From NCBI GenBank assembly GCA_965140585.1, contig OZ223264.1:236829-300828 (forward strand): a stretch of DNA of 64,000 bases, read 5' to 3'. This DNA comes from Spirochaetia bacterium. GTDB taxonomy: Bacteria; Spirochaetota; Spirochaetia; UBA9216. Below, in pieces: positions 746 to 18,770 of the stretch; the first letter of the stretch is position 1, and each line of letters begins with the position of its first letter. Made by a program: the position numbers and the translations under genes. The notes beneath the pieces are model-generated. The model ran no database searches and was not told the origin of the DNA. It was given only the letters and a program-made list of their open reading frames with translations.

Positions 746-3700
746 TGTTAGCTTACGTTGATTTTGGTTCAGGTGAATCAAACATTTCAGATTATATAAT
801 ATCTTCCTCATTCAAGCGGACACTTCAGCTATGTAATGAAGAATTGTGCTATGTAGTTAACAAATGCAGTTTTGAAATCAAAGGTTCAACGACTCTGAAA
901 CTTCAGATTATGAACAGCGATGATACAACAATCCGGATAACTGAAGACGATGGAACAGCGTATTTTAAAGGAAAGGTAAGAGGAACATTTGAAACCAAAA
1001 TCAGTTCTCAGGTAGGTAACCTAAAGGTTGAGTTGGTCGATAATCTCGATGACATAACAGCAACTGTTGAGACTGTTGATATATGGTCTGGGTATAAGAT
1101 ATGTGACAGTTCAAATACTTCGGCTTCTATACTGCATCAACTCTTTTATTTGGCTGGTTACTCTTCCTCTGATTTGAGCCTTGTGGATGTCGATGTGACA
1201 ATTCCATATTTCTATTTGGAAGAGGATACTGCAGTCATTGATATTATCAGTGATTTAACTTTTCAATACGGTCAGGTGATTAACTGTGAACTCGATGGAA
1301 CATTTAAGAATTACAGTATCTACTATGATGATTTAACAACTTCTTCTTATCTCAACAATACCAACATCTATGGTGAGCTTGGAATCAAGAAAGTTGAAGA
1401 GAAGTACAAATCGGTCAAGGTAATATGGAATCCTATCGAGTATGCAGCAGACAAGGTTGTCTTTTCAGATATTACAAACGGAACAACTTTATTGCAATGT
1501 AATATTGAATTAGAACCTTCTCAGTATTACCAAGATGATGATGAGATATTTGCCAACTATACCTACAATGATGAAGAGCTTGTCTATGTAGAAAATGCCT
1601 CTTTGGATATCAGCTGTGATGCTGATATTTCCTACTCAATAACTGAGGCTCCTAAGGGGGCTTATCTTTCTATTCAGAATACAAACTCAACAATCAATGA
1701 GAACATTACAAAACTCGATATCACAGGTGATGTATATTATAAAGGTGCACAGCACACTGAATATTCTTCAAACATTAGTGACACCAAAGATATAGAAGAG
1801 ATTGAAGCCTCTTACATTTTTGAAGAGGCTTATGCTCAGAATCTTGCGAGTTATCATGCTGTTTACTACAAGTATTCTGATTTCAAATACACTGCCAAAT
1901 CCAAAGACTATTATCCTATTGGGACACTTGTCCTGATAAACGAAACAGCATTTACCAACCTTGATGTTACTGGATTTGTCTCTCAGATTGTTGATGATGG
2001 AACTGGCTACTATACTTATACAATCTATTCAGTAAGTGAGTTCTCAGCACAGCCTATTACAACCAAAGTAAGTACAATCTCAAAGACCAACACCCAGATT
2101 TCAATTCCTACTATTGTTGAGGAAGTTTCAAATAATATTACCGTTGAAGGTGTTCCGACGTACAATGAGATAAACACAGGAGCTTCGTTGTTAAATGAAG
2201 GTTCTGCAACGACAACAATACCTGATGTGCCGACTGTTGTGGTTGAAGAATATTATAAATCACTCAGGATTGTTTACGATGTTCAAGACAACCTTTCAAA
2301 CTTTAGCCACTATGAGATTCAGGTTTCAGCTGATGAATCAAATTGGTATTCATTGGCTTCAGGTTCAAATTGGAAAGATACTCTTAATGATACTACAGCT
2401 ACTATTTTCTATTATCATACTCATGCAGGCATTCCTAACTCTGGAACAAGCCAAGAACCTACAGGAACAACTCTCTCATATAGAGTAAGACGTGTTACTT
2501 CTGCCAATGTTGAAAGTGATTGGTCAGATGTAGTAACAGGCACAACCAAGATTATCGAGACAGGTGATGTTGCTGCATCTTCAATAACTGCGGACAAGAT
2601 AGAAGCTGGTTCAATCACATCTGATAAGTTATCAACAGACTTATTACAGACACAGATTGCACAGGTCAGCGGAAGTATCACTATTGATAGTTCTTATGGG
2701 TTTGTTGGGGTTGATAATGATACAAAGAGAAGAGTCTACCTCGATACTGATGAAGTGGTCGTCGAACAATATAACGAAACAACTGGTGATAGTGTTGTTC
2801 AATGTAGAATGGGTGGAAAGATAAAAGGTGCACCTTCATCTTATATAATCGGAAATGGTTTAATTAAAAATGAAAATGTAGAGATTCCAACAGCAATCCC
2901 AGACACTACTTATAAATTCACATTTGAAACAGATTTCTCAGATACGACTGCTACTTATTATTTCTCAAATGATACAGAAACAACACCAACTATAGATACA
3001 TCAAAATATGTTTTTGGGACTCACTCCATGAAGCTTGTTTCAACTAATGGAGAATCTTCTGTTTCCGATTGGTTTATACCAACATGGACAGGTGGTAATC
3101 CATTCTTCTTTGCATCATATTTCTACATTCCTACTGGAACTACAGCTCACTTCTCTTTTCAAGTTGGAGCTGTGTATATGGATTGTGTGCATTTAGGTAT
3201 TTCTACACTTTCGGGTTGGGCTGATGGGTATGTTACTAAAGATGGTGTTGATTGTGGTGCAACAGGAACAATTGACATTCCATATGATGAATGGTTTCTC
3301 TGTGCAATAAGTTATGACCCTGTTTTAGATACATTAAGTGTATCAGTGAATGATAATTATATAACTGCAAGTATTGATAATTCAACAGCTTGGGCTGGTT
3401 CAACAGATTATATGATGGGAAACATTATTTATTGGAATGATACCAGTGAAAGTATTTACATGGATGAAACTGTCTTGGATGTTGAAACTTTTATAGATAT
3501 TAGTGAGGCAATTAAACAATACTCAAGAACTGAGACATGGAACATTGGTGAAGATATAAGTGATAACCTTTATTTGATACCAGGAGAAGGCGGTTCTGTA
3601 ATAATTGGTGGTGACATAACATTCTCAAATGCTTTTACGCTTACGGATGCAGAGATAACAACATTAAATACCACAACGTTGAATTCAACAAATATAAATG

Positions 3701-4299
3701 GAACTCAAATATGTGCTGGGTATGACCCGAATGTTGATAACTCTGTTAGTTGTTCAAATTGGTTTCGTTCATCAGGAAATACTGGGTGGTATAACGCTAC
3801 TTATGCTGGTGGACTTTATATGGTGGATACAACATATGTTCGGACTTATAACGGAAAGTATTTTTATGCAAACAGAGTTTATGGTGCTGTTGGTAATGAC
3901 TATGCAGATGCCATAGAAATTGATGAAGAGTTGAATGTTGATTTTGGCTATGTCTATGTTAGAACTGCTGAAGGTAAAACAAGAAAGTCAACCAAATATG
4001 CAGAAAAAGGGATCATCGGAATAACTACAAATACCCAGTCTTTTACTGCTCATTCTTATGATGGAGAAAAAGACAGATTACCAATTTCAGTTTCAGGATT
4101 TGTATTGGCTCATACAGATAGAATTTATAAATCAGGAACACCTCTTACTTCATCAAAAAATGGATTACTTACTAAGGCTAGTCTGATTACTCGTGTCTTT
4201 AAACCTGAAAGAGTTATAGCAACGTTTTATAAAGAGATAAGTCAAAATACTTGGAATGATGTTGATGTAAATAAAAGAAATATAGTGAGAGTTAAATAA
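745..4299 (+). CDS. Phage tail host-specificity / tail-fibre protein (gpJ-like, 1184 aa)
   Basis: ATG overlaps the upstream stop (TAATG). Contains an FN3-like segment (SHYEIQVSADESNWYSL...LSYRVRRVTSANVESDWSDV), the SITADKIEAGSITSDKL motif common in phage tail fibre/host-specificity proteins, and a beta-rich lectin-like C-terminus. Confidence 0.6.
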   Translation: MLAYVDFGSGESNISDYIISSSFKRTLQLCNEELCYVVNKCSFEIKGSTTLKLQIMNSDDTTIRITEDDGTAYFKGKVRGTFETKISSQVGNLKVELVDNLDDITATVETVDIWSGYKICDSSNTSASILHQLFYLAGYSSSDLSLVDVDVTIPYFYLEEDTAVIDIISDLTFQYGQVINCELDGTFKNYSIYYDDLTTSSYLNNTNIYGELGIKKVEEKYKSVKVIWNPIEYAADKVVFSDITNGTTLLQCNIELEPSQYYQDDDEIFANYTYNDEELVYVENASLDISCDADISYSITEAPKGAYLSIQNTNSTINENITKLDITGDVYYKGAQHTEYSSNISDTKDIEEIEASYIFEEAYAQNLASYHAVYYKYSDFKYTAKSKDYYPIGTLVLINETAFTNLDVTGFVSQIVDDGTGYYTYTIYSVSEFSAQPITTKVSTISKTNTQISIPTIVEEVSNNITVEGVPTYNEINTGASLLNEGSATTTIPDVPTVVVEEYYKSLRIVYDVQDNLSNFSHYEIQVSADESNWYSLASGSNWKDTLNDTTATIFYYHTHAGIPNSGTSQEPTGTTLSYRVRRVTSANVESDWSDVVTGTTKIIETGDVAASSITADKIEAGSITSDKLSTDLLQTQIAQVSGSITIDSSYGFVGVDNDTKRRVYLDTDEVVVEQYNETTGDSVVQCRMGGKIKGAPSSYIIGNGLIKNENVEIPTAIPDTTYKFTFETDFSDTTATYYFSNDTETTPTIDTSKYVFGTHSMKLVSTNGESSVSDWFIPTWTGGNPFFFASYFYIPTGTTAHFSFQVGAVYMDCVHLGISTLSGWADGYVTKDGVDCGATGTIDIPYDEWFLCAISYDPVLDTLSVSVNDNYITASIDNSTAWAGSTDYMMGNIIYWNDTSESIYMDETVLDVETFIDISEAIKQYSRTETWNIGEDISDNLYLIPGEGGSVIIGGDITFSNAFTLTDAEITTLNTTTLNSTNINGTQICAGYDPNVDNSVSCSNWFRSSGNTGWYNATYAGGLYMVDTTYVRTYNGKYFYANRVYGAVGNDYADAIEIDEELNVDFGYVYVRTAEGKTRKSTKYAEKGIIGITTNTQSFTAHSYDGEKDRLPISVSGFVLAHTDRIYKSGTPLTSSKNGLLTKASLITRVFKPERVIATFYKEISQNTWNDVDVNKRNIVRVK

Positions 4300-4811
4300 T
4301 GTCAGGTGAAACATTGGTTACTGATTCAAAATTCAGTCATTACTCATCCAGTTCATTTTCTGTTGGATCATCAGCTTATACATACGTACAAAGATTTGGT
4401 AGAGGTAATAGAGGTTATATGAATGGAACACCAAGAAGCAATATCTTCACTGATGATAGCTTTATTATGAGAATCTATTACTACTCAGGAGGATGGGTTC
4501 AATCTGCATCAGCAGTTTGTTCTACTGATGGAACAGCCGTTGGTCTTTATTGTTCTTCAACAGATAGTTATAGAACCAGATGGTATTTTCTTTGGGATGC
4601 AAGGCCGTATGGTGATGGTAAAGCATATTTTGCTGGATATGGCAGAGTGGGGACTGCATACGCAATTAATCACTCATCTTATCCTAGAGGAAAAAATCTT
4701 GCTTTGTATCGAATCACAAACTTTGGTTGTGATACTTCTAACACTTCAGCAACATCCGATAGTTCAACAGCAATAACTACAGCACATTATGTATGTACAA
4801 AATATCAATAG
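4299..4811 (+). CDS. Hypothetical phage protein
   Basis: Translationally coupled (TAATG) to the tail gene. No recognisable motif. Confidence 0.4.
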   Translation: MSGETLVTDSKFSHYSSSSFSVGSSAYTYVQRFGRGNRGYMNGTPRSNIFTDDSFIMRIYYYSGGWVQSASAVCSTDGTAVGLYCSSTDSYRTRWYFLWDARPYGDGKAYFAGYGRVGTAYAINHSSYPRGKNLALYRITNFGCDTSNTSATSDSSTAITTAHYVCTKYQ

Positions 4812-4823
4812 GAGATTTTAAAA

Positions 4824-5261
4824 ATGGCTTTACTCGTAGATTTAAAAGCAGATAGTAATTACTCACAAATAGATTTAACTGATGTCTATGTTCGTATAGA
4901 TAGAGTTCAGATACAACCCAAGTTTGGGATTATGAAAATGACAGTAGAGGGTTATATCAGTCCTGATGTCTCGTCTGTTATTAGAGGAATTGAACAAGCA
5001 CAGACAACCTTTGCTTCTAATTTCTTTGAAGAGGTGGGGAGTGATATTATTTCAGGCAGTTTGTATAACTCTGTCCAAGAAGAACGGAGTATGTTAGAAC
5101 CACCTCCATTCACACAAGATTATCCAGTAGCACTATTCAATGATGTATTTACTGTAAGGCTAACTGAAGAGACTGCTTCAACTTCTGTAGATGACCTTTA
5201 TCCCATCTTATATGAAATGCTTAAAACAGAAACAAGATTTCAGAATGTCAGGGATGCTTGA
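4824..5261 (+). CDS. Hypothetical phage protein
   Basis: ORF in the phage operon. RBS-like 'ggagat' upstream. Confidence 0.4.
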   Translation: MALLVDLKADSNYSQIDLTDVYVRIDRVQIQPKFGIMKMTVEGYISPDVSSVIRGIEQAQTTFASNFFEEVGSDIISGSLYNSVQEERSMLEPPPFTQDYPVALFNDVFTVRLTEETASTSVDDLYPILYEMLKTETRFQNVRDA

Positions 5262-5650
5262 TGGAAGAGGAGAGAAGAAAAGACAGAATTGATTTTCAAA
5301 CTTATATGGAGGTTTTGGTGAGCAACGTAAAAGAAACTGTCAAAATAGAACTGACCTCTGTAAAGCAGGAAATCAAGAACTTGGAAGAGAAGGTAATTAC
5401 TCGCATTGACCTTCATGAAAAAGAAAGCGGTAACAAGATAACAAACATTGAAGAAGAGTTGGACTGTCTTAAAACCAAGGTCTCAAGTATTGAAAACAGA
5501 GTTGAAGCTTTGGAGTTGAAACCTATCAAGGATAATTCTGAGACAATAGAAAAGTTTAAATCAACATTCAAAAAGATTCTGTATACCACATTAGCAGGAG
5601 GGATAATCACTTTTATTTTGTATTTAATAAAAATGTTTTTAGGTGTTTAA
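5258..5650 (+). CDS. Coiled-coil protein with C-terminal TM anchor (phage)
   Basis: ATGA overlap with the previous gene. Heptad-rich coiled coil followed by hydrophobic C-terminus TLAGGIITFILYLIKMFLGV. Confidence 0.4.
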   Translation: MMEEERRKDRIDFQTYMEVLVSNVKETVKIELTSVKQEIKNLEEKVITRIDLHEKESGNKITNIEEELDCLKTKVSSIENRVEALELKPIKDNSETIEKFKSTFKKILYTTLAGGIITFILYLIKMFLGV

Positions 5651-6116
5651 AATGTATATATTTCAAAATCACAACGACCTGTATCCAGTTATTCAGGATG
5701 TGGGTTGTTACTTTCGGTCATGCCTTCATATTGCCGAGTTAGAAAGTCACAAGATTCTATCACCAACTCAGATAAATAGATTATGGGATAAGGCAAATAG
5801 TTTAGGACAGATTATTGATTCTAATCTTAAAAAGCCAGGTCCGTTAATTGAACTTGGTTGCAAGGAGCTTGGATTAGATAGGACTGCCTTTGATGTCGCA
5901 ATCTTCAAGTATGGTCAGATTGATTATTATGGTTGGGTTAAATCACATCCTCAATACAAGAATTATAAATACCTGATTCAGAAAGTTCAGACTGTAAATG
6001 ATCATGAACATTATAGGGTTGTAGATGTATTTGGCAATGTAATATTTGACCCATATCATCCATCACCTGAAGTTAGCTTTATTTATAGTTCTATTCTGTT
6101 CTATGTAGGAGCTTGA
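5643..6116 (+). CDS. Putative Cys/His peptidase-type lysin (phage)
   Basis: Overlaps the previous gene. N-terminal QDVGCYFRSCLHIAE with a downstream His/Asp resembles C39-like/CHAP-like peptidases. Sits within a lysis cassette. Confidence 0.3.
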   Translation: MFKMYIFQNHNDLYPVIQDVGCYFRSCLHIAELESHKILSPTQINRLWDKANSLGQIIDSNLKKPGPLIELGCKELGLDRTAFDVAIFKYGQIDYYGWVKSHPQYKNYKYLIQKVQTVNDHEHYRVVDVFGNVIFDPYHPSPEVSFIYSSILFYVGA

Positions 6117-6120
6117 ATGG

Positions 6121-6552
6121 ATGGTAAGAAAGTTATTATCAATATTACTTGCACTCTTGTTGTTTCAGCCTGCCTATACTTGGGCGGATTCTTTACTGCC
6201 AGAAGTATCTATAGTCGAGCAGTTGACGAATGTAATATTTCAATTGCAGAAAGTACAGAACGATATAACCAGTTATCAGAAGCTTATACAAGAATTACAG
6301 AAATCAATTCAGACTTACAAGGCAGACTCGATTCAAGCATCTTTGAAGCTGAAAGAGCAACAGGCATTATTAAATCAATATCAGAAGGACTTGGAAGCAC
6401 ATCAGGAGACATACAATCAATTATTGAATGCCTACAACGAATTGTTGAACAGATTAGAGAATATGAAGGTTGTGAATAATATCTTAATCGGGACAACTGT
6501 CTCATTTGGCTTATTTGTAATCATTAAAGGTTTTATCATATGGAAAAGTTAA
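6121..6552 (+). CDS. Signal-peptide / coiled-coil / C-terminal TM protein (spanin-like?)
   Basis: MVRKLLSILLALLLFQPAYTWA signal-like N-terminus, long coiled coil, TM at C-terminus. An alternative overlapping ORF 6117..6479 in another frame is also coiled-coil; only one is likely real. Confidence 0.35.
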   Translation: MVRKLLSILLALLLFQPAYTWADSLLPEVSIVEQLTNVIFQLQKVQNDITSYQKLIQELQKSIQTYKADSIQASLKLKEQQALLNQYQKDLEAHQETYNQLLNAYNELLNRLENMKVVNNILIGTTVSFGLFVIIKGFIIWKS

Positions 6553-6713
6553 AAAGCAGAAAATTTATTACATGGATTGTAACAACTCTACTTTGCATAA
6601 TCTCAGTTTTTATAACTAAGACTATATCTCCAGAATTGATAAACTGCTATACAGTGATAACAGTTTTATATATTGGAGGGAATACAGTTTCTAAGTATTT
6701 TGAGAAACGATAA
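6540..6713 (+). CDS. Holin-like small membrane protein (57 aa, two TM), unannotated in ORF track
   Basis: ATG at 6540 overlaps the end of the previous ORF. MEKLKSRKFITWIVTTLLCIISVFITKTISPELINCYTVITVLYIGGNTVSKYFEKR* has two TM helices and a basic C-terminus. Stop TAA at 6711-6713. Confidence 0.4.
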   Translation: MEKLKSRKFITWIVTTLLCIISVFITKTISPELINCYTVITVLYIGGNTVSKYFEKR

Positions 6714-6716
6714 TGT

Positions 6717-7160
6717 TTAGGGTATCTCGATTGATGTTGAAGAACTTTTTATCCAATTGTCAAGTTGCTCGATTACTGATTTAATTTCAGAGGGTTTTTT
6801 CTTCTTGATTGCACATTCCCATATTATTGCTATCCGCCAGCCTTTACTTTTTAAATTCCGAATATTTGTACTATCTCTTTCTACATTCTCTTGTAATTTT
6901 TTTTGCCAAAATTCTGTTCTGGTTTTTGGTAGTACAAAAAGAGGGCAGTTGTGCATATGCCAAAAGCAACCGTGAACAAAAATGACTACTTTATGTTTGG
7001 TTAATACAATATCAGGTTTACCGGGTAATTTTTTTGAATGTAGAGAATATCGATATCCAGAAGCAAATAAACCTTTTCGAATTACAAGTTCAGGTTTTGT
7101 ATTTTTAGCTTTAATACCACTCATCATTTTTGAACGAGTGGCAGGCGATACAATATCCAT
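6717..7160 (-). CDS. vsr: Very short patch repair endonuclease Vsr
   Basis: Classic Vsr motifs: TRSKMMSGIKAKNTKPE, LPGKPDIV, IFVHGCFWHMHNC, FWQKKLQENVERD, GWRIAIIWECA. Confidence 0.9.
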   Translation of the reverse strand: MDIVSPATRSKMMSGIKAKNTKPELVIRKGLFASGYRYSLHSKKLPGKPDIVLTKHKVVIFVHGCFWHMHNCPLFVLPKTRTEFWQKKLQENVERDSTNIRNLKSKGWRIAIIWECAIKKKKPSEIKSVIEQLDNWIKSSSTSIEIP

Positions 7161-8407
7161 TATTTTACAAGCACTAAATCTTCATGCTTTTTCATTGCAT
7201 TGATAACAATCGGTTTAATAACTTTAGCAACTTCAGAAAAAACAGGGACAACTACACTATTACCAAATTGCTTATATGCTCTAGTGTCGGAAACCGGAAT
7301 GTCGAAACTGTCATCAAACCCCATTAATCTGGCACATTCTCTGGGCGTTAGCCGTCTTGGGTTTTTGTTTTTTTGGTGAACTAAAATTTCTGAACCATCT
7401 TTATAATATCTGGCAGATAGAGTTCTGGAAACGTCGTTTTCTTTAACAAGGCCAAATCCAAATCCATTTCCTTTTGCTCTATGTTTCTCGGCATAGTTTT
7501 GTAAATAAGCCCAAAGTTTATCTGTTAAAGTATATTTGTCATGTACCTTGTTATTTTTATGGTCAAAATATTTATCCTTATCATGTTCAAGGAAAAGTTC
7601 AGAACCATCTGTTTTGTGAAGGATGCTACCAATCTTAACTTGCCCTTTTGGTGGATAGTTTAACATATCCCAGTCAAACTCAGCTTCATTTTTGAATCCA
7701 ACAATAATTATTCTTTCTCTATGTTGTGGTACCCAATGTTGTCCATCTATTATGTGGGGATAGACATTGTATTCTAATTCTTCTCGAAGTGTTCGCATAA
7801 TTACTTTAAAGGTGTTCCCTTTATCATGTGATTTTAGATTCTTCACATTTTCAAGAACGAAAGCTTCTGGTCTTTTAGCATCGATTATTCGAGCTACATC
7901 GAAGAAAAGAGTTCCTTGTGTTTCATCTTCGAAACCATGCAATCTTCCAAGAGATATTTTTTTTGACACTCCAGCTATTGAGAATGGCTGGCAAGGGAAT
8001 CCTGCCAATAATACATTGTGGTCTGGAATCTCTGACACCTCAACTTTTGTTATGTCTCCGTTTAAGAGTTCACCATCTCTATAATTTGCAGCATAGGTTT
8101 TCTGAGCATATGAATCCCATTCAGAAGTAAAGACACATTCACCACCAGCTTTTTCAAAGGCATTTCTAATCCCGCCAATTCCTGCAAATAAATCTATAAA
8201 TTTGAATTCACCATTAGTCTTTTTACCGATAGTTTGTGCTGAAATCAATTTCTGTAATCTATCAACAACATAATCTTTTGGTTCAGATTCATTTTTTAAC
8301 CAACGTGTGACTGTACTTACATTTACATCAAGTTCGTCAGCAATCTCTCGTTTAGTATAATAATTTAATGCATTAGACAGATAATCGATAGTTTTGACTG
8401 TGCTCAT
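7160..8407 (-). CDS. dcm: DNA (cytosine-5)-methyltransferase, Dcm-like, with N-terminal XRE-type HTH
   Basis: Motif I FIDLFAGIGGIRNAF, motif IV GFPCQPFSIAG, ENVKNL. N-terminal REIADELDVNVSTVTRWL helix-turn-helix. Overlaps vsr as in E. coli dcm-vsr. Confidence 0.9.
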   Translation of the reverse strand: MSTVKTIDYLSNALNYYTKREIADELDVNVSTVTRWLKNESEPKDYVVDRLQKLISAQTIGKKTNGEFKFIDLFAGIGGIRNAFEKAGGECVFTSEWDSYAQKTYAANYRDGELLNGDITKVEVSEIPDHNVLLAGFPCQPFSIAGVSKKISLGRLHGFEDETQGTLFFDVARIIDAKRPEAFVLENVKNLKSHDKGNTFKVIMRTLREELEYNVYPHIIDGQHWVPQHRERIIIVGFKNEAEFDWDMLNYPPKGQVKIGSILHKTDGSELFLEHDKDKYFDHKNNKVHDKYTLTDKLWAYLQNYAEKHRAKGNGFGFGLVKENDVSRTLSARYYKDGSEILVHQKNKNPRRLTPRECARLMGFDDSFDIPVSDTRAYKQFGNSVVVPVFSEVAKVIKPIVINAMKKHEDLVLVK

Positions 8408-8419
8408 GAAATCCCCTCC

Positions 8420-8458
8420 CTGGGAACATATATTGCATTATGCACTATTTATTCCCAG
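8420..8458. promoter_or_regulatory. Inverted repeat CTGGGAA-N25-TTCCCAG containing a CCTGG site in the MTase upstream region (putative operator)
   Basis: Read directly: CTGGGAA at 8420-8426 and TTCCCAG at 8452-8458, in the 120-bp gap between the R and M genes. Confidence 0.3.
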
Positions 8459-8527
8459 ATGAACAGGTTTATTTTGAGTTAATTCCTCAGAAATGTCAAT
8501 TATTATAAAGATTATATATGAATGGAC

Positions 8528-9718
8528 TTATTTCTGCTTTCTATCCCTTAATCTTTCTGTTCTTGAATATAGTTGAATGAGTTTTTCTTCTTTAACCCTA
8601 AAGCAGGTTCCATGATTTCGTTTAGTATGCATCCTAATTTCCATCATAACATCTCCTGATTCAATAAGCTGGATAAACTCCTTTATTGAGGGGCCTGAAT
8701 AATAGGTTAGCTCTACATAATGAAATTCTTCATTCTTATCTTTACCTCTATTTTCGGCACCGATATACGCACTTTCTGTAAGCTTTTCATTTAGTCTAAA
8801 TTGAATGGTCGTAAAATCATATTTTCCTATAGGAGTGTTATTAAAACATAGATATACGTTTTCAGTTTCATTATCTACAGAAAGACTTAGATTGTGGGTA
8901 TTAATGTTAATGGTCGGTGTTGAATACAACGCTTGACGTTGGTTTTCAGCATCAAAATAACCATACCTCTCAAGTCTCTCATTTTGATTTTTGGAGCCAT
9001 CAATCCATTCCGGTTCTTTGAGAAATAAATTCATTTTTTCTTTAGATTGATTTTGTTTTAACCTGAAGCATTTCAGCTCAATACCCTTGAAGTCTGGTCC
9101 TGAAGAATTATTCTCTTCTATACCCATTAAAGATTCAAATGTGTATCCTACTCCTGTACTTCCAGAACGAAGTGTTTTGACATAACCCATTTCTTTAATT
9201 TTATCAAATTCCTCTAACAGTATATCGATGCCATTATTTCGCTGTACTGGTTGAATTGATAAGTGCCAATCTAAATCTAAAAAGAAAGAACCTTGTAAAT
9301 TTGATAAATTTAGTTCAGAAAGTAATTCGGAATAGTAGATATGGTCAGGCTCAAGAATATGGATTTCATAAGTTCTTTTATAATCTTTTCTTCTTCCTAC
9401 AATTATAAGAGTATGTTCAGGTACAGAATTGACTGATGTCTTTAGGCGCGTTATTCGTCTCTCAGGATACCGATGGTAATGTTTATAATTACCATCCTTA
9501 ACTTCAATTGTTCCTGTGTCATTCCAAAGATAGCTAATTTGTTCTGTATAATTTATTGATACATTCGGGATAAAGTTGGTAATTGCAGGAAAAAGTCTAT
9601 ATGCTTCAACCGGGATAAGAACGCCATGTCTACCAGAATCATCATTTTTAGTTAATATCTTACAGAGGATACCATCTACATTTTCATAATTGATAAGAAT
9701 TTTTGATAATACAGACAT
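8528..9718 (-). CDS. Type II restriction endonuclease, EcoRII-like (N-terminal B3-like effector domain)
   Basis: 396 aa (EcoRII is 404 aa). N-terminal LTKNDDSGRHGVLIPVEAYRLFP resembles the EcoRII N-domain L-S/T-x-N-D-x-G...P...LFP motif. Lies directly upstream of dcm-vsr, which is CCWGG context. Confidence 0.55.
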   Translation of the reverse strand: MSVLSKILINYENVDGILCKILTKNDDSGRHGVLIPVEAYRLFPAITNFIPNVSINYTEQISYLWNDTGTIEVKDGNYKHYHRYPERRITRLKTSVNSVPEHTLIIVGRRKDYKRTYEIHILEPDHIYYSELLSELNLSNLQGSFFLDLDWHLSIQPVQRNNGIDILLEEFDKIKEMGYVKTLRSGSTGVGYTFESLMGIEENNSSGPDFKGIELKCFRLKQNQSKEKMNLFLKEPEWIDGSKNQNERLERYGYFDAENQRQALYSTPTININTHNLSLSVDNETENVYLCFNNTPIGKYDFTTIQFRLNEKLTESAYIGAENRGKDKNEEFHYVELTYYSGPSIKEFIQLIESGDVMMEIRMHTKRNHGTCFRVKEEKLIQLYSRTERLRDRKQK

Positions 9719-9793
9719 AATAAGTCAGTTTAGATGCAATCTGATTCCATGTCATGCAAAAAAATCAATTTTGTTAACTCTTCAGAACTGTCT

Positions 9794-9813
9794 ATTGAGC
9801 CAATTGGCTCAAT
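9794..9813. repeat. 20-bp perfect palindrome ATTGAGCCAATTGGCTCAAT
   Basis: Self-complementary. Shares the 14-bp core GAGCCAATTGGCTC with the palindrome at 10466-10485. Confidence 0.8.
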
Positions 9814-9911
9814 ATATCTATAAAAGCGCTCCCCGGTATAAAAAGGGCCGTGTACATCCCAAATTCCACCCAGTACTATGCTTCCAAGATTAACTCAAGG
9901 AGGTACAAACT

Positions 9912-10241
9912 ATCGAAGATTGGGAAGTTGTCTTCTCATATTCAAGAGAAGATGCAAAGCGTGATGGGGTATTAAAAGACGTAACTTACATTGCTAAAGA
10001 GTGTGGGTTCAAGCTTGATACTGTCATTACAGAGACCTTGTGGCACCTCATAGAAGGTGAAGAAGGTGTAAGGCCATTACTTTTTGATTTGTTGCTGAGA
10101 ATCAAGATGGCAAAGAAAGACAGTTCTATTCTTGTTTATGATTACAAGTGTAGAAAAGGCATGATTAAGGTCAGGTCAGAAGTCGGACCTGGCGATGATG
10201 CGTATCCGGTTCTAACAATCGGAACAATTTATGATTTCTAA
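9912..10241 (+). CDS. Hypothetical protein, open frame 9894-10241 with strong SD but no canonical start (track calls TTG at 10038)
   Basis: AAGGAGG at 9897-9903. Frame is open from 9894, but the first ATG/GTG/TTG is at 10038. Weak resemblance to a serine-recombinase catalytic domain (EEGVRPLLFDLLLRIKMAKKDSSILVYDYKCRKG). Confidence 0.25.
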   Translation: MEDWEVVFSYSREDAKRDGVLKDVTYIAKECGFKLDTVITETLWHLIEGEEGVRPLLFDLLLRIKMAKKDSSILVYDYKCRKGMIKVRSEVGPGDDAYPVLTIGTIYDF

Positions 10242-10249
10242 GGAGTGAA

Positions 10250-10462
10250 ATGATGAGTGTAATGACTAAATTGATTGAAGTAGAAGCAATGGAAGAAAAC
10301 GATGTTTATTCTCAGTTTAAGACTGGTAAGAATAATGTAAAGAAGGTGCTAAAAGTCCTGCTATTTGATGAGTTGAAAGATGAAATGGAGAAAGAAGATA
10401 AGCCAATTAGGCAACGTAAGCCTCAAAAGAAAGAAAAGCCGGTTGAGCCGGAAAGAACTTAA
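10250..10462 (+). CDS. Small lysine/glutamate-rich hypothetical protein
   Basis: ORF with SD 'aaggagtg' upstream, followed immediately by a terminator. Confidence 0.35.
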   Translation: MMSVMTKLIEVEAMEENDVYSQFKTGKNNVKKVLKVLLFDELKDEMEKEDKPIRQRKPQKKEKPVEPERT

Positions 10463-10465
10463 ATT

Positions 10466-10490
10466 AAGGAGCCAATTGGCTCCTTTTTTT
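10466..10490 (+). terminator. Rho-independent terminator (20-bp perfect palindrome AAGGAGCCAATTGGCTCCTT plus T7)
   Basis: Perfect stem followed by TTTTTTT. Confidence 0.75.
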
Positions 10491-10557
10491 TAGGAAAATT
10501 TATTGGTCAGTGGCTTTTAGAGGGTGTAATATAGAATAAACTAAAAAAGGATAAAAG

Positions 10558-11178
10558 ATGAAAAAGTCGATTTTTATTACAATTACGATTCTTACAATAA
10601 TACAGTTAATTTTCTCCTGTGATAATTTGGCAGGAGTTAACCCTGAAGATATAACTTCAGATGGATCAGATTCTACTTCAGACGATGGAAGTGATAGTTC
10701 AGAAAGTGAAGTAATTGCAAAGAGCATGAAAGCATATGATGCAAACGGTTCTTTTTTAGGTTATTGTACTTATGCTTCAGGTTACTTTTTATTTATGTAT
10801 TCTCAGAATGGATATTTTTACAGTATAAATTGGGATGGTTCGTTCACAGACGGAGGATTGTATTACACAGGGCAAAATCTAACAGGCACTGCTTTTTATG
10901 CGTACTTAGATTCTTATGCCATTAAAGCAAAAACTGTTTTTTCTGTTAATAATGTTTTGTATACCTATGTAGATTCAAATAGTGATAGTTTGGCAGATAT
11001 AAATGCTTCAATCACACAGTATCAAAGTGTTTACAGTGGTGGAACTACAACTAACTATGAAACACCTTATGAATTAAGCACATTTGGCTATTCTGCCTTT
11101 TCTGTGCAAACAATAACCAAATCCACAGCAGGAATACCGAGTAGCATTACTACTCCTATTTCCTTAGTAAGTGAGTAG
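10558..11178 (+). CDS. Acidic Ser/Asp-rich lipoprotein
   Basis: Signal peptide MKKSIFITITILTIIQLIFSC with a lipobox-like IFSC. Low-complexity DGSDSTSDDGSDSSESE region. Confidence 0.5.
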   Translation: MKKSIFITITILTIIQLIFSCDNLAGVNPEDITSDGSDSTSDDGSDSSESEVIAKSMKAYDANGSFLGYCTYASGYFLFMYSQNGYFYSINWDGSFTDGGLYYTGQNLTGTAFYAYLDSYAIKAKTVFSVNNVLYTYVDSNSDSLADINASITQYQSVYSGGTTTNYETPYELSTFGYSAFSVQTITKSTAGIPSSITTPISLVSE

Positions 11179-12202: not shown

Positions 12203-13023
12203 ATGAAAAAAATTCCGATAAACGATCAAATTGCGTATTCTATTTCGAACTTAGTTGATGACTCTCAAGTAGGACGTAGAGACCCAAGCCATTATGAAAT
12301 AGAAACGTTGATTAACGAGTGCGCATTATCAAAATATGATCCAAACCAAATCGGGAAAGGCCCTGTTGGGAAGATGAAACGTATTCGTCATGTACTAATA
12401 GGTTCATTAGAAGAAGAAACAGAAAAAGCCGAGGCTTTTGCTTATGGAATTATAAGCTTAATACGTTCTTCTGGTGGATTCCGAGAATTATCTCCCAATT
12501 TTATTGGATGGGAGAATATCCATAATTTGCAAACGGTTTTAAAAGATGAAGGTATTTTGTTGGGTGATGATGGTACCTTAAGTTATAAGATTTTAGATGA
12601 TTTATCAAATTCAGAGAAGACCGATGTTTTATATTCATATATTAAAAGAGCCAGGAAAGGTAGTGAAGATGCTGCTCTGATTGTGGGAACTAGTAAAGAT
12701 TTGATTGAAGCAGTATCAGCTCATGTGATTTTTTAAAATGTGGAACATATCCTACAACTGCAAATTTCCCAACATTACTGGGACAGGCATTTGTTATGTT
12801 GGGCATGGCTACCTCTTATGATGAGGAAAAGAAAGATGAACATCCAAGAAAAACGATTGAACGAAACATGTATGATTTAGCTTGTTCTATTAATAAATTA
12901 CGGAATAAACAAGGAACTGGTCACGGTAGACCTTTTCTTCCAGATTTGTCAAAGACAGAGGCTATTGAAGCTGTACAAGTTATGGGGATTATTGCAGAGA
13001 AGATGTTAAATTGTTTGAGTTGA
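12203..13023 (+). pseudogene. Abortive-infection protein with Abi_C domain, interrupted by -1 frame break at T6A4 tract
   Basis: Downstream piece carries the Abi_C signature LRNKQGTGHG. Upstream ORF ends at a TAA inside GATTTTTTAAAATG (12727-12740). The second frame is open from 12709. A single extra T would fuse the two parts into one roughly 270-aa ORF. Confidence 0.55.
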
Positions 13024-13678: not shown

Positions 13679-14773
13679 TTATTGCAAAGACATTAATTCC
13701 TCAAGAATTATTTTACTAAAATCTGGTGGAAGTCTACTTGAATGTATCATGTATTCTGTAAATAGAAATGCAAATTTTGTTGCTTGTCTATTAGTTTTTG
13801 TAAATAACTTTAAACACTTTCTTTCTTTATCATTTGATAGAATTGACCAAGCTAATTCACGGAGTATTAATGGCGAGCTATTAATTTCAAATGGAGCCTC
13901 TAATGCATGTCTGATTAATTCGATGAATTTCCCCCAATGTGGCAATGATAATTGTTCACCTAAATCAGAACTTGGTCTTGCATTTTTTAATGCCTCTTCG
14001 TAAAGATTATTCTTATATTCATAGGTTTCCCGTCCGCCATATAGTAACATTAACAATGCATCAGAAAGATCTTCTTTTTTGTCTGGATGAAGATAAAGAG
14101 AAAAAATTTTATTAACAATCTCTGCTATAGAAATGAGAAATAAACTAGAATAATCTAATACCAAAGAGAGATGCTCTTCTTTTTTAGGATCTAATTCTGG
14201 TGCGTTTTTTCTTAATAGAATGAGAGATTTACGACATGATTCCCCAGCATCTTTTATCATCCAAAAACTCGAACGAGAGAAACTAATTAATTCGGATAAT
14301 GTTGGATATTTTTTTCCAATATCAAAATATTTTTCCCATAAATCAATTTTACCTAAATTTGCGTCTGTCAAGGTTAAAGCTTTTTGTGAAGTCGCATCAC
14401 AGAATACCTTAAAATCATGCTCGGTCAATAAAGTAACACCTATTTGACCAGCTGAGATGCGATGATCTTTCTCGATGTTGTCTTTTCGCAAGATGCAAAT
14501 GCCCATCTCGGCAGACATGTATTTCATTATTCCATTTAACCATAAAGCTCTGTTAATTGGACTTTGCCCCTTTAAAGTTTTGCAATCAATTATAATTTTT
14601 TTATAGCTGATGAAATCACATGGAATATATGCTAGAACGTCCAAGTCGGTAATTTTAATATTTTTATTCTGTATGTCTAGGGGACTACAGACATCTACCT
14701 CAAGTTGGGGGACCCAACCTTTTGATACAGCATACTTCAATGCTCTTTGTTTTTGTTCACGGTCTTGCATCAT
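13679..14773 (-). CDS. Unknown 364-aa protein with a PD-(D/E)xK nuclease-like motif, second gene of the operon
   Basis: ITDLDVLAYIPCDF...KKIIIDCKT matches the D...(D/E)xK arrangement. C-terminal part is helical. Confidence 0.45.
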   Translation of the reverse strand: MMQDREQKQRALKYAVSKGWVPQLEVDVCSPLDIQNKNIKITDLDVLAYIPCDFISYKKIIIDCKTLKGQSPINRALWLNGIMKYMSAEMGICILRKDNIEKDHRISAGQIGVTLLTEHDFKVFCDATSQKALTLTDANLGKIDLWEKYFDIGKKYPTLSELISFSRSSFWMIKDAGESCRKSLILLRKNAPELDPKKEEHLSLVLDYSSLFLISIAEIVNKIFSLYLHPDKKEDLSDALLMLLYGGRETYEYKNNLYEEALKNARPSSDLGEQLSLPHWGKFIELIRHALEAPFEINSSPLILRELAWSILSNDKERKCLKLFTKTNRQATKFAFLFTEYMIHSSRLPPDFSKIILEELMSLQ

Positions 14774-16065
14774 AGTTTAGCTCCGTACATGATTGAATCT
14801 AGTTCATATTGCTTTTCTTCAGACAATGGGATTTCTCCTCTTTTCCTTAGGTTTGTTGCGCTTATTGTTGACTCTACATATTCCTTGCTCTGTTCAAACA
14901 TTTTACATGCCTCTGGGTTAATTTCTAATCCTGAGACAGCCTCGTTAGAAACAAGTGATAATGCAATGCCCAATGCTTCCATATTTTCTTCTGTGTCTAT
15001 GATGTGAAGTTGAGAATACCCGTGAGGAAGTGGCTCTAAATAGCCAACTCGGCATTGCACTAGGTTTTTATATTGTTGAGTAGCCTCAGTTGTGCTACTT
15101 ATTGTCTTTCTATCTCGTAAAGCTCTAATAATCGCTGCCGGTTGTCTTATCCTATGTGCCTTCGGTAAGAATTGCCCTTGTCGAACAGAAGAAACAATTG
15201 CCATTGCTCGTTCATATATTTCACGTTTTGTTGGCGGTAGGTGTTTTGATGAAGGCGCTGGGGTAAACAGGAAGTAGTTTTTACCACTATGATCAGTTTC
15301 AATAGAGGGTGGTTTCACTATGCCAAATTGTGATAGGTTTAATAATAATTTGAGTTCATCATCTGTGATGTGGTGTCCGTTTATTTCTTTAGTTTCTTCG
15401 ACTATTGATAAAGGTATACCCTGAACTGTTTTAATTAGACTTAAAATATTGCTGACAGATTTAGAGCCACTACTAGCAACTGCATCTGTAAATATATCAA
15501 TGTTCTCAGAGAAATAGTGTGGACTGAGTAATATATCTTTTCCTCGGGCTCGGCGATTAATTATAAAGTTTCCTTTTGTCCCAATATCTACTGCTCTATC
15601 AAAGAGAACTTTTTCAGGGCTAAGCTTCTGAAATAGAGAATCACGATTTTCTGGAGATTGAGCAAGGCGTTTCACCATCTCAATACATAACTGTTCTGAT
15701 TCGTTAAATGACCCTTCAGACATAGAATAATCACCGATTACATGGTATAGATCTTCATAATAAGGAACATTAGGTAAAATCCCCTTAATAGTTCTTCCTT
15801 CTTGCCTGATCTTTACAAATTCAATATCACCTAAAATTTCTACTATCCCCTTAATCGATGTTGTTGGTATTGATAAATAGTGATTTGATACCATTTTCAG
15901 AATTTCAAAGTCAATAAAAGGAAGACCTCTGATATGTAATGCTAATCGTACTGCCATGCCTATTTCAACTAAAAATCCGAACTCTGGAACATCAATTGCT
16001 CCTAAATTTAATTGAATTTCATGGCATCTTGCAGCTATTTCAGATGATTCACCTTTTGAACTCAT
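14770..16065 (-). CDS. Unknown 431-aa protein, first gene of a two-gene operon
   Basis: Long ORF with no family recognisable by eye and no Walker motifs. Its stop overlaps the start of the downstream gene. Confidence 0.5.
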   Translation of the reverse strand: MSSKGESSEIAARCHEIQLNLGAIDVPEFGFLVEIGMAVRLALHIRGLPFIDFEILKMVSNHYLSIPTTSIKGIVEILGDIEFVKIRQEGRTIKGILPNVPYYEDLYHVIGDYSMSEGSFNESEQLCIEMVKRLAQSPENRDSLFQKLSPEKVLFDRAVDIGTKGNFIINRRARGKDILLSPHYFSENIDIFTDAVASSGSKSVSNILSLIKTVQGIPLSIVEETKEINGHHITDDELKLLLNLSQFGIVKPPSIETDHSGKNYFLFTPAPSSKHLPPTKREIYERAMAIVSSVRQGQFLPKAHRIRQPAAIIRALRDRKTISSTTEATQQYKNLVQCRVGYLEPLPHGYSQLHIIDTEENMEALGIALSLVSNEAVSGLEINPEACKMFEQSKEYVESTISATNLRKRGEIPLSEEKQYELDSIMYGAKL

Positions 16066-16195: not shown

Positions 16196-16287
16196 ATTAA
16201 ACCTTAGGTAACCCGGAATAACGTGAATTGGGACAGGTGACTCAGTTGAAAATGTTGATGTGCAGTAATCGAGTTTGTGATATTGTT
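16196..16287. repeat. 92-bp direct repeat, copy 1
   Basis: Identical over the 3' 60 bp (TTGGGACAGGTGACTCAGTTGAAAATGTTGATGTGCAGTAATCGAGTTTGTGATATTGTT) to copy 2. About 6 mismatches in the first 32 bp. Confidence 0.9.
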
Positions 16288-16689: not shown

Positions 16690-16766
16690 AAAATTTATTG
16701 AATTCTGTTTTAATTTGATATAGGGAAACAATTTATACGTGCTCATAAATTTCGTCCCCTAACCGG

Positions 16767-16858
16767 ATTAAACCTTAGGCAACCTGGAACTGTGTGAATT
16801 GGGACAGGTGACTCAGTTGAAAATGTTGATGTGCAGTAATCGAGTTTGTGATATTGTT
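16767..16858. repeat. 92-bp direct repeat, copy 2 (third partial copy at 18262-18286)
   Basis: Followed by a degenerate copy of the lipoprotein start (VLKRGFVFLICYY versus MQKVLKRLIPLLIM). Confidence 0.9.
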
Positions 16859-17037
16859 GATTGATAGAGGATTGAAAGTGTTAAAAAGAGGTTTCGTATT
16901 TTTAATCTGTTATTATATTAATAAACTCCATAATTTTGTTTTTAGGATTAATGGAGATGAATTAGAAGTAATATCCCCAACTATGATAATGTTACGATTT
17001 AAAAATTTAAGAATGATAGAAAGTGAAGAGGACGTAG

Positions 17038-17799
17038 ATGCAACTGAGTCAATCTCAAGGGCAATATTACTACAATGCCAGATGGTATGACCCAAGCATA
17101 GGCCGAATCACCACCGAAGACCCCATGCGTGACGGCCTAAACTGGTACGCTTATGCTAATAATAATCCGTTGAAGTTTGTTGACCCGAGCGGGTTGGCTA
17201 ACTTGACATCATATACACCTGATAATCCCTATTACTATTATAGCTCCTCAAAAGTGACTGATACGGTTATTAAATCATTATCGCTTATTCCTTATATAGG
17301 TGTAGGTGCAGGAATTGCAGAGTCCATCTCAAACAAATTTGGTTTATTTGAGATTATTGATTTAAATAAACAAAGCCAAATTGATAAAGCCTCTGGAGGA
17401 TTATCGTCTGCTGGAACTGTAGCAGGAATTATGAATAAATTGGGGGAAGGTTTTTTTAGTAATGGTTTTTCAAAAGTTTTAGGCGTTTTATCCACAATCG
17501 GAACAATAGTGGGACTTGCAGATTATGCTAATAGTTTCTTATCAGAACCCTCATTAGAAACGGAGAAAGCAGTAGATGCCTCAGGGGTCGTTCAGGGGAA
17601 ACATTTAGACACATTAATCCCATTTGCAAAAGAAGTAGAAGAATTAATGTCTGGATATTTAGATAGTGGCGATGTTGAAATAATTGAACGAGATGATGGT
17701 ACTGACACATTGCAATGGAATTCGCAGGCATCTAAAGATGCATTCAATTCAGTTGTAGAAGATTATCAACGAAATGAAGTGGAAAGAACCGATGAATAA
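17038..17799 (+). CDS. Orphan Rhs/YD-repeat C-terminal toxin fragment (core-end DPxGL plus Gly-zipper membrane-type toxin domain)
   Basis: YYYNARWYDPSIGRITTEDPMRDGLNWYAYANNNPLKFVDPSGL is the canonical end of the Rhs core. Only 12 residues precede it. The C-terminal domain is rich in GxxxG/AxxxG segments (IPYIGVGAGIAESI, GGLSSAGTVAGIMNKLGEG, VLGVLSTIGTIVGLA). Confidence 0.7.
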   Translation: MQLSQSQGQYYYNARWYDPSIGRITTEDPMRDGLNWYAYANNNPLKFVDPSGLANLTSYTPDNPYYYYSSSKVTDTVIKSLSLIPYIGVGAGIAESISNKFGLFEIIDLNKQSQIDKASGGLSSAGTVAGIMNKLGEGFFSNGFSKVLGVLSTIGTIVGLADYANSFLSEPSLETEKAVDASGVVQGKHLDTLIPFAKEVEELMSGYLDSGDVEIIERDDGTDTLQWNSQASKDAFNSVVEDYQRNEVERTDE

Positions 17800-17965
17800 T
17801 ATAATTATTCTATTTACAGTATTAGCTGTATTATTCTCTAATTTTAGTATTTGGTTATATTCGAAACAAGCAAAATTTTCGAAGATTATTAAGATTATTT
17901 TGTTTATAGTAGCAGATGGTATTTGGGCTACTTTGTTTGTAATAAAGATAATAGAAATTTTATAA
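17774..17965 (+). CDS. Small two-TM membrane protein, candidate immunity protein
   Basis: 63 aa. Overlaps the 3' end of the toxin ORF. Two hydrophobic helices. Confidence 0.4.
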   Translation: MKWKEPMNNIIILFTVLAVLFSNFSIWLYSKQAKFSKIIKIILFIVADGIWATLFVIKIIEIL

Positions 17966-18000: not shown

Positions 18001-18240
18001 TTCCATTGGAAGTAGTCCCGGAGAACCCGGACTACTCAACAGAGTCTATTCCGATAAATAGAGTTTGTTCGAAATTTCGGAAATGATTCATCGTCCTACC
18101 AATTTCGTCTAACGCGCGTTAGACGAACCCTTTAGGGCGGTGAGGGGAACTGCAGAAGCTCCGCTTCCGTCGGCAGATTTTGTAACAACGGGCTGTTGTA
18201 CGAAGTCTGCCGGTTAACTATATAAACCACCTTACAGTTT
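18001..18240. other. GC-rich non-coding stretch with three strong hairpins
   Basis: Includes the hairpin 18012-18035, the 24-bp perfect palindrome TTCGTCTAACGCGCGTTAGACGAA (18104-18127) and an inverted repeat CGGCAGATT...AAGTCTGCCGG (18171-18213). No ORF. Confidence 0.5.
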
Positions 18241-18341
18241 TAAGAATATTACACAATCCATTCCCCTCTAACGGATTAAACTTCAGACAAACAATAGTGT
18301 ACTGAAATACCCATATATAATATTATGAAATAAGAGTTCCA

Positions 18342-18770
18342 ATTAATGTATTAATTGAGGGAAACCTGGTCAGAGATCCGGTTTTAAATGAAACCCCAAA
18401 GGGGACTAAAATATGCAATTTCACAATTGCAACCAACAGATACTTTAAGCAGGATGAGGAATATCAAAAAGAAGTTTCCTTCATCGATGTGGAAGCCTGG
18501 TCCAGACTTGGGGTTGTTTGTGATAATGGACTTCAAAAGGGACAGGGGGCCAGAGTTGTAGGTCGTCTGAAACAGGACAGGTGGAATGATAAGGAGGGCG
18601 CTTTTAAATCAAGACTGAAGATTGTTGCTGAACATGTGGAATTTAAGCCTGTATTCTCGAAGGAAGAGGCCCAGGCTCGTCAGGAGGCTGAGCAGGTAGA
18701 TCTATCCCAGGAGGCCGTTGCGAATGTCGTAACGCCGGAACTGGACCCTGTCGCGGATTCAGTGATTTAA
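18342..18770 (+). CDS. ssb: Single-stranded DNA-binding protein
   Basis: INVLIEGNLVRDPVLNETPKGTKICNFTIATNRY...VEAWSRLG...VVGRLKQDRWNDKEG aligns to the SSB OB-fold. There is no in-frame ATG/GTG/TTG before 18489; ATT at 18342 after AAGAG is the best candidate start. Confidence 0.7.
   Translation: MNVLIEGNLVRDPVLNETPKGTKICNFTIATNRYFKQDEEYQKEVSFIDVEAWSRLGVVCDNGLQKGQGARVVGRLKQDRWNDKEGAFKSRLKIVAEHVEFKPVFSKEEAQARQEAEQVDLSQEAVANVVTPELDPVADSVI

Follow-up and report, generated by a model that had tools for sequence, protein, structure and literature searches.

Orphan toxin–immunity cassettes are thought to diversify the weapons that bacteria use on contact, and to our knowledge Rhs biology is unstudied in the spirochaete phylum. 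Here we analyse a candidate of this kind, a stand-alone Rhs tip followed by a small putative immunity gene, at 17038–17965 of a 64,000-nt stretch of contig OZ223264.1 (Spirochaetia assembly GCA_965140585.1, positions 236,829 to 300,828 of the forward strand). We call this whole stretch the window and number it from its first nucleotide. Several well-described systems bear on the locus. In Salmonella Typhimurium, recombination takes place between orphan Rhs tips and the main rhs gene (PMC3967940), while Salmonella Rhs C-terminal toxin–immunity pairs are also expressed internally, from promoters in the chromosomal rhs locus, as toxin–antitoxin modules (PMC7043789). In Pseudomonas aeruginosa, the Rhs toxin Tse5-CT is depolarising, no enzymatic activity is predicted for it, and its immunity protein Tsi5 has two transmembrane segments (PMC9637101). 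Finally, the contact-dependent inhibition (CDI) ionophores of the EC93 family of CdiA-CT domains dissipate the membrane potential, and their CdiI immunity proteins are small and hydrophobic (PMC11630599).

Set against these systems, the locus is best read, with a probability of roughly 0.6, as a self-contained orphan Rhs C-terminal toxin/immunity cassette that forms part of the cargo at the right-hand end of a prophage.

A stand-alone Rhs tip and its immunity partner

The tip is a 253-amino-acid open reading frame (ORF) on the forward strand (17038–17799), with an ATG start and a Shine–Dalgarno-like GAGGA (17028–17032) 5 nt upstream of it. Residues 4–53 match positions 25–76 of the 76-position NCBIfam model TIGR03696 (Rhs_assc_core) with an E value of 1.4e-15 and 57.5 bits, the score cut-off of the model being 32.5 bits. 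In alignments to Rhs/TcC shells of solved structure, these residues cover the final ~50 positions and stop at the shell terminus, as seen with YenC2 (641–690 of 690), TccC3, RhsA (7q97) and Tse5 (8cp6_B, 1071–1121 of 1121). As the core-end residues align to the termini of solved shells, the boundary between shell and toxin can be placed after L53, where we predict an autoproteolysis site of the DPxGL self-cleavage type; the core-end block encodes ...YYYNARWYDP...NNNPLKFVDPSGL. The original prediction, made from the sequence alone, had this ORF start inside the Rhs core terminus, which both the family match and the shell alignments confirm. Its count of 12 codons before the terminus was off by a trivial amount, as RWYDP... 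begins at residue 15, 14 codons in.

The absence of an upstream Rhs repeat body, also proposed at the outset, holds over the whole 64-kb window. The tip frame 5' of 17038 is closed by many stop codons and contains no open Rhs body, six-frame motif scans of the window found neither tyrosine–aspartate (YD) repeats nor another Rhs core end, and tblastn with two full-length Rhs proteins gave a sole match in the window, at 17023–17760, which is the tip. The 17 kb upstream and the 46 kb downstream of the cassette are free of rhs genes. The ORF thus lacks the YD/RHS-repeat shell and the N-terminal delivery domain of an Rhs polymorphic toxin, and retains the core terminus (...DPxGL) right before a variable toxin domain. 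A 5'-truncated tip with core homology and an immunity gene directly 3' of it is also the make-up of an orphan Rhs-CT/immunity module. A decaying pseudogene is an unlikely alternative: at 34% GC about 7% of random codons would be stops, as estimated from base composition, so the open frame of 253 codons is not due to chance, and the conserved residues of the family are intact.

What follows the core end is, as had been predicted, a C-terminal domain of about 200 residues, here delimited to residues 54–253 (200 amino acids; 17197..17796, forward strand). This toxin domain represents a rare, unannotated family. Residues 54–253 have no match in Pfam, NCBIfam, PHROG, PDB or fold searches, and a word-index search of 5.8 billion proteins with the toxin domain recovered only the query protein itself. 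A HMMER scan of 1.84 billion cluster representatives gave ten matches, namely the query, seven relatives (P0004–P0009 and P0011) that align over the whole toxin domain at 25–30% identity, and two (P0003 and P0010) that were discarded as repeat artefacts. A search with a profile of the toxin family recovered three members only, and a database search with the 53-residue core end returned nothing.

One of the relatives, P0008, is a 1615-residue Rhs protein with an N-terminal DUF4280 (PAAR-like) domain and the toxin domain at its C-terminus, and its gene directly follows a pair of Phage_GPD (VgrG-like) genes. The other relatives are short and consist of a tip only; they start in or near the Rhs core end, and some of them are in multi-tip arrays with an IS110 transposase or a lipase-type tip. 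As a full-length Rhs carries the domain and the remaining relatives are orphan tips, the domain is a true Rhs warhead that at least one lineage can deliver, but it mostly occurs in orphans. In the P0008 locus (L001), 3' of the full-length gene and its immunity gene, a short fragment at 10649–10741 (..EFKTDYETQKALELTHTVYWKPSK) duplicates part of the toxin domain and is what remains of a previous tip from this toxin family.

The immunity ORF (17774..17965, forward strand) encodes 63 amino acids, or 57 from an internal ATG at 17792, and has two predicted transmembrane helices and a basic loop (..SKQAKFSK..). Its two hydrophobic stretches are strong and about 20–22 residues long, with Kyte–Doolittle averages over 19 residues (KD19) of 2.37 and 2.25. 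Position 17792 (MNNIIILF...) is more likely to be the start, to judge from the relatives, which begin with MN-. Read from there, the ORF overlaps the toxin stop codon by 8 nt, and this overlap with the toxin 3' end suggests translational coupling. All seven relatives have a small ORF of 53–67 amino acids directly 3' of the toxin, within 0–220 nt at the loci that were read, and in two of these it overlaps the toxin 3' end as it does in the window. The 53-residue ORF is clipped by a contig end, and the L001 ORF, 76 residues as listed, is 59 residues long from an internal MNIKE- start. Two predicted transmembrane segments are present in all six complete small ORFs that were read, a set that excludes the ORF cut by the contig end and the 57-residue neighbour of P0004 (no DNA); five of the six carry an S-[KR]-[KR] loop, the L001 loop being SEKK.

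Pairwise identity among the small ORFs is 18–32%. Conserved synteny together with high divergence is the usual signature of cognate immunity proteins. Because a small two-helix ORF recurs 3' of every toxin relative, the pairing of predicted toxin and predicted immunity protein is, on this comparative evidence, real. Both the two-helix ORF overlapping the toxin 3' end and its role as immunity partner had been anticipated by the original prediction. The 63-residue ORF could also be taken for a class II phage holin, but this reading is rejected: its C-terminus (...KIIEIL) is not a charged tail, the lysis genes are 11 kb away, and small ORFs of an equivalent kind come after this toxin family in Rhs loci outside phages.

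Conserved flanks and prophage setting

Three related Spirochaetia loci allow the surroundings of the cassette to be compared. The first, L007, from a Spirochaetia metagenome-assembled genome (MAG), encodes a full-length Rhs of 3345 residues (689–10726) that has a signal peptide of the Sec type and, in place of a PAAR domain, a very long N-terminal region that is not Rhs; this architecture suggests that delivery in the L007 lineage does not depend on the type VI secretion system. The second, L008 (Spirochaetaceae JB007), is a myovirus-like prophage with tape measure, baseplate hub, baseplate wedge and tail fibre genes, in which a stand-alone tip ORF of 215 residues (MESSFSGLYYYNARWYDP...) starts 57 nt after the lysis-region genes. 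The third, L009, is an island with GmrSD and Mrr defence genes and no flanking Rhs body; a stand-alone tip of 211 residues and a gene for a transmembrane protein occupy its far end, and a tyrosine integrase is encoded 7 kb leftward of the tip.

The toxin and immunity sequences of the window, L007, L008 and L009 are unrelated to one another, and the similarity lies in the flanks. The Rhs core-end block (17059..17196, forward strand) is conserved as DNA, with 85–87% identity to L007, L008 and L009 over 131–138 nt, and the homology is sharp-edged, starting at TATTACTACAATGC and ending at GACCCG..GGGTT. The best DNA match of the core end, at 87% identity, is the full-length Rhs of another Spirochaetia MAG, and the nearest core-end sequences are all in Spirochaetia MAGs. 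The GC content at third codon positions (GC3) of the block is 0.52–0.59 in all four genomes, as against 0.17–0.40 in the adjoining rhs body, toxin domains, immunity genes and host genes; in the window it is 0.59, versus 0.22 in the adjoining toxin DNA. On account of this elevated GC3 in four genomes, we consider that, as DNA, the block either moves together with the variable tips or is homogenised along with them.

Upstream of the core end lies an AT-rich leader (16916..17037, forward strand), which includes the GAGGA and is homologous to the leader of the L009 stand-alone tip. Over ~125 nt, including the Shine–Dalgarno sequence and the ATG, 96 of 144 aligned positions are identical with gaps counted, and the alignment score is 44, compared with 22.7 +/- 2.9 for shuffles. 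On the 3' side, a conserved hairpin block (18006..18064, forward strand; GTAGTCCCGG-AGAA-CCCGGACTAC...) also occurs downstream of the L009 cassette (50/69; score 55 versus 21.4 +/- 2.3 for shuffles). It is followed by a GC-rich, structured non-coding element (18101..18243, forward strand) with two long hairpins and a host-like GC content of 48%. This element is 82% identical to L007 11266–11396, just 3' of the rhs–immunity pair, with one block of 63 identical bases out of 64; the hairpin stems are invariant between the window and L007, and a loop and the linker differ. The 3' region folds into long hairpins (RNA z-score -6.8). Rfam has no match for the window or for the 3' element, which may function as an RNA, as a terminator or as a site of recombination. 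Heptamers resembling a GTCTAAC/GTTAGAC core are found at 18108–18125, but they are only 4 nt apart and form a simple hairpin, and the window has no integrase; an integron gene cassette with an attC site finds no clear support.

Promoter calls in a scan of 16.0–18.5 kb were no better than in shuffles, and no terminator was called there. Exact-pattern scans of viral and metagenome contigs for the 3' element and the core-end DNA found nothing, as did a protein scan of viral contigs, and a core-end-like match is present in only three deposited phage records.

Taken as sequence, the cassette is a modular unit, made up of a leader with a Shine–Dalgarno sequence and an ATG, a 138-nt GC-rich core end, a variable toxin/immunity part and 3' hairpins. 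The original prediction spoke of a displaced toxin tip, a description that we abandon: because there is no rhs gene nearby, the flanks are common to other Spirochaetia cassettes and the location is within prophage cargo, the locus is better seen as a modular cassette on a mobile element than as debris beside a parent gene.

The cassette is also framed by repeats. A 92-nt direct repeat has its second copy directly before the cassette (16767..16858, forward strand; beginning with GGATTAAACCTTAGGCAA), and its first copy (16196–16287, 93% identical) precedes the neighbouring lipoprotein gene. The first 18 nt of the repeat form the motif GGATTAAACYTYAGRYAA, which is present only three times in the window (16194, 16765 and 18273), a number reached in 0 of 100 shuffles; the third copy (18273..18290, forward strand) stands ~50 nt before the ssb gene. 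The copies bracket the lipoprotein and tip cassettes, and those at 16765 and 18273 mark a possible island or cassette boundary. The second repeat copy is followed by a remnant that resembles the signal peptide of the lipoprotein (VLKRGFVFLIC). The repeats may be att-like or reflect cassette accretion mediated by duplication.

Positions 1–18.3 kb of the window have a GC content of 31–37%, and the rest, which is host DNA, ~44%. The cassette is at the right end of this low-GC prophage, whose 33–35% GC compares with 44% in the host, a probable spirochaete. The low-GC region contains the C-terminus of a tape-measure protein (phrog_36688, E value 1.8e-7), an 1184-residue protein in which a tail-fibre segment is common to deposited phages, at up to 67% identity, an XhlA-like lysis-associated protein, several unmatched genes and a lipoprotein gene, and then the tip. 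It ends ~50 nt before the ssb gene, and neither a tRNA nor a tmRNA was found at the island border. The ssb gene itself (18339–18770, forward strand; SSB family, PF00436) is in frame from ~18339 (..INVLIEGNLVRDPVLNETPKG..) and has no ATG, GTG or TTG before 18489. As the low-GC island ends at the 5' end of ssb, the insertion may have removed or replaced the start codon.

The prophage carries further genes of interest. A complete type II restriction–modification system (6717–9718, reverse strand) consists of a Vsr nicking endonuclease, a C5-cytosine methyltransferase and a restriction enzyme. At 12203–13023 (forward strand), an Abi_C match (E value 1e-11) is on a separate 75-residue ORF (12796–13023), 3' of a 177-residue ORF without a family match, an arrangement that looks like a split or frameshifted abortive infection (Abi) gene. 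A two-gene operon in the cargo region (13679–16065, reverse strand), encoding proteins of 364 and 431 residues with overlapping stop and start codons, matches nothing in Pfam, NCBIfam or PADLOC and is a candidate for an uncharacterised defence system. Directly after the lysis-associated genes, two long ORFs (6117–6479 and 6121–6552, forward strand) run in parallel in different frames. One has an N-terminal transmembrane segment and a coiled coil, and the other a signal peptide, a coiled coil and a C-terminal transmembrane segment; they may be a spanin-like, fully overlapping gene pair. A similar pair is present in the L008 prophage (9452–9844 and 9447–9926), with weak similarity in both frames (E values 8e-4 and 2e-3), although that prophage is otherwise dissimilar to the one in the window, where 10.5 kb of defence cargo lies between the pair and the tip.

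Proposed function and alternative readings

If the locus is an orphan cassette of the kind that we favour, the toxin would act in the cytoplasmic membrane of the target cell, which it would most likely depolarise in the manner of Tse5-CT, as a pore or ionophore without enzymatic activity, and the immunity protein would neutralise it inside the bilayer. The tip by itself would be undeliverable, since it has neither a shell nor a delivery domain. The immunity gene would then serve as the standing protection of the lysogen from neighbours armed with this toxin, and the toxin as a reserve warhead that homologous recombination could transfer to a full-length rhs gene. The core-end block on the 5' side and the conserved structured element on the 3' side would be the recombination handles, and the arrangement of the flanks is the one expected if warhead–immunity units are exchanged by homologous recombination between two handles.

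The proposed site of action draws on both proteins. Only ~15 residues of the immunity proteins are outside the predicted helices, so that neutralisation would have to take place inside the bilayer, and hence the toxin would act there. As in the Tse5/Tsi5 type, the partner is predicted to be a small integral-membrane protein with two transmembrane segments. The toxin domain contains hydrophobic helices rich in Gly, Ala and Ser at about residues 73–98 and 143–165. Eight positions are invariant across the eight members of the family (L56, Y67, P85, L109, A178, V179, E201 and M204); Glu201 is the sole polar one, the remaining positions are hydrophobic or structural, and there is no catalytic constellation. 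Because the immunity protein is almost wholly intramembrane and the toxin has no conserved catalytic residues, we infer action within the membrane, and we put a non-enzymatic, membrane-depolarising toxin at somewhat better than even odds.

A number of observations count against this explanation. The structural model of the toxin domain is of low confidence in its hydrophobic parts, and hydropathy is borderline for transmembrane helices: the KD19 maximum is 1.53, one relative has no segment that reaches 1.2, and only the segment at residues ~73–98 is hydrophobic across the family, and moderately so. The C-terminal domain does have 4 GxxxG and 19 small-xxx-small motifs. However, the glycine-zipper motif (G/A/S/T)xxxGxxx(G/A/S/T) occurs twice, compared with 1.98 expected from composition-shuffled sequences (P 0.58), and enrichment is absent in all eight family members (P 0.32–0.90), so that the domain does not show the excess of motifs over composition that marks a transmembrane glycine-zipper toxin. 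Of the original description as a GxxxG-rich glycine-zipper domain, the motifs are there but the enrichment is not, since a composition rich in Gly, Ala and Ser explains the count. The membrane-inserting or pore-forming toxin derived from that description is still plausible, on account of the two-helix partner and the lack of catalytic residues, but it loses the glycine-zipper argument and is left with one moderately hydrophobic conserved segment. Beyond the toxin itself, the toxicity and expression of the cassette are predictions, and a partner rhs gene in the same genome, which recombination would call for, is presumed. The leader, Shine–Dalgarno sequence and ATG common to the L009 cassette hint at independent translation of the tip, which a silent reserve would not need.

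This last point leads to another, rather doubtful reading, in which the cassette is an autonomous toxin–antitoxin or abortive-infection module. The tip would be translated in the lysogen from its own Shine–Dalgarno sequence and ATG, the two-helix protein would restrain the toxin, and prophage loss or phage attack would free a membrane-depolarising toxin; an Rhs tip would have been domesticated beside the restriction–modification and Abi genes. The GAGGA 5 nt before the ATG, the conservation of the leader and start region with L009 despite unrelated toxins, and the surroundings with Vsr-containing type II restriction–modification and Abi_C genes are all consistent with such a module. In addition, the stand-alone tips of L008, L009 and L014 start 7–9 codons before YYYNARWY. 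There are precedents as well, as internally expressed Salmonella Rhs pairs function as toxin–antitoxin modules of type II (PMC7043789) and Tse5-CT is toxic from the cytoplasm (PMC9637101). However, no promoter-like site was called in the repeated leader, and the retained shell fragment of 50 residues has no obvious role in a toxin of this type. Moreover, the same toxin family is found on a full-length, delivery-competent Rhs and, with other members, in multi-tip orphan arrays, which fits interbacterial use.

The main alternative to a depolarising toxin, although an unlikely one, is an enzyme or binder directed at the envelope. The toxin would then target a membrane-associated or periplasmic molecule, such as a cell-wall precursor, a lipid or a transporter, rather than form a pore, and the two-helix protein would protect by sequestering it at the membrane. 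An alpha/beta subdomain at residues ~173–248, which is confidently modelled (pLDDT, the per-residue confidence of the model, 81–88), is the most conserved part of the domain and carries the invariant Ala-Val pair, Glu201 and Met204. Together with the weak hydrophobic segments and the ordinary number of glycine zippers, this would suit such a role. Nevertheless, a single invariant polar residue and the lack of any enzyme family or fold match argue against an enzyme, and immunity proteins with so few residues outside the bilayer offer little surface to block a soluble active site.

Least probable of all is integration of the prophage into a host rhs gene at the core end, which would make the tip, the immunity gene and the 3' element the severed 3' end at attR and leave the Rhs body beyond the left window edge, possibly fused to a tip supplied by the phage: the cassette does lie at the prophage–host boundary, the 3' element is host-like in GC and matches the region 3' of the intact L007 rhs locus, and the core-end block is the only sequence common to full-length rhs genes, but the 125 nt 5' of the core end are the leader shared with L009, whose non-phage island has no flanking Rhs body, copies of the direct-repeat motif enclose the cassette, one at 16765 and the other, past the right edge of the 3' element, at 18273, and the GC3 of toxin and immunity gene is island-like (0.19–0.22), though likewise in L007.

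Returning to the orphan cassette, we tentatively extend the proposal to Spirochaetia phages and islands at large. These may carry plug-in Rhs warhead cassettes that re-arm the giant secreted Rhs of the host, by double crossover or core-end integration, or else autonomously translated, membrane-depolarising addiction or abortive-infection modules. Re-arming of the host Rhs by plug-in cassettes would amount to lysogenic conversion of an interbacterial weapon. Two spirochaete prophages and one integrase island with tips in the same scaffold point to phages as vehicles of warhead exchange, and handles conserved as DNA on both sides make the recombination model concretely testable. The toxin domain, a new and extremely rare Rhs domain accompanied by a conserved two-helix partner, is a candidate for a new, directly testable membrane-acting toxin fold.

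Comparison with known systems

The orphan rhs-CT/rhsI modules of Enterobacteria are like the window cassette in having a truncated 5' end with core-end homology, an intact toxin and an immunity gene directly 3', and in that the core homology can serve as a recombination handle onto a full-length rhs gene. The classical orphans, however, lie directly 3' of the main rhs gene, whereas the window cassette is on a prophage with no rhs gene nearby. It also differs in retaining only ~138 nt of the core, in having its own Shine–Dalgarno sequence and ATG, and in possessing a second conserved flank on the 3' side.

Tse5 (RhsP1) and Tsi5 resemble the window pair in other respects. Both toxins are C-terminal domains linked to Rhs; neither has a predicted enzymatic function, and both contain hydrophobic or amphipathic helices. 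Both immunity proteins are small proteins of the cytoplasmic membrane with two predicted transmembrane segments. PDB searches by profile and by structure detected no similarity in sequence or fold between the two toxins. Tse5 is a full-length, PAAR-like protein delivered by the type VI secretion system, and its depolarising activity has been shown, while the window toxin is a tip only, and its depolarising activity is predicted.

The CdiA-CT/CdiI pairs likewise combine a polymorphic tip with a small, hydrophobic, highly divergent and cognate-specific membrane immunity protein, if the window toxin does act at the membrane as we propose. Their scaffolds are different, with a VENN motif in CdiA and DPxGL in the Rhs tip, and there is no sequence similarity. 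The order of the parts is different too: the CdiA-CT ionophore is a C-terminal five-helix bundle that comes after an entry domain, whereas in the window toxin the hydrophobic part precedes the alpha/beta subdomain. With the internal toxin–antitoxin pairs of Salmonella the window cassette has in common a C-terminal domain and immunity gene that can be expressed without the delivery part, which in the window is a prediction; the Salmonella promoters are internal to a chromosomal rhs locus, while the window module is in a prophage.

Orphan modules as such are thus a known kind. What is new here is the uncharacterised toxin family and the phage-borne, two-handle architecture of the cassette in Spirochaetia, which, if the exchange model is true, extends the recombination of orphan tips documented in Salmonella (PMC3967940).

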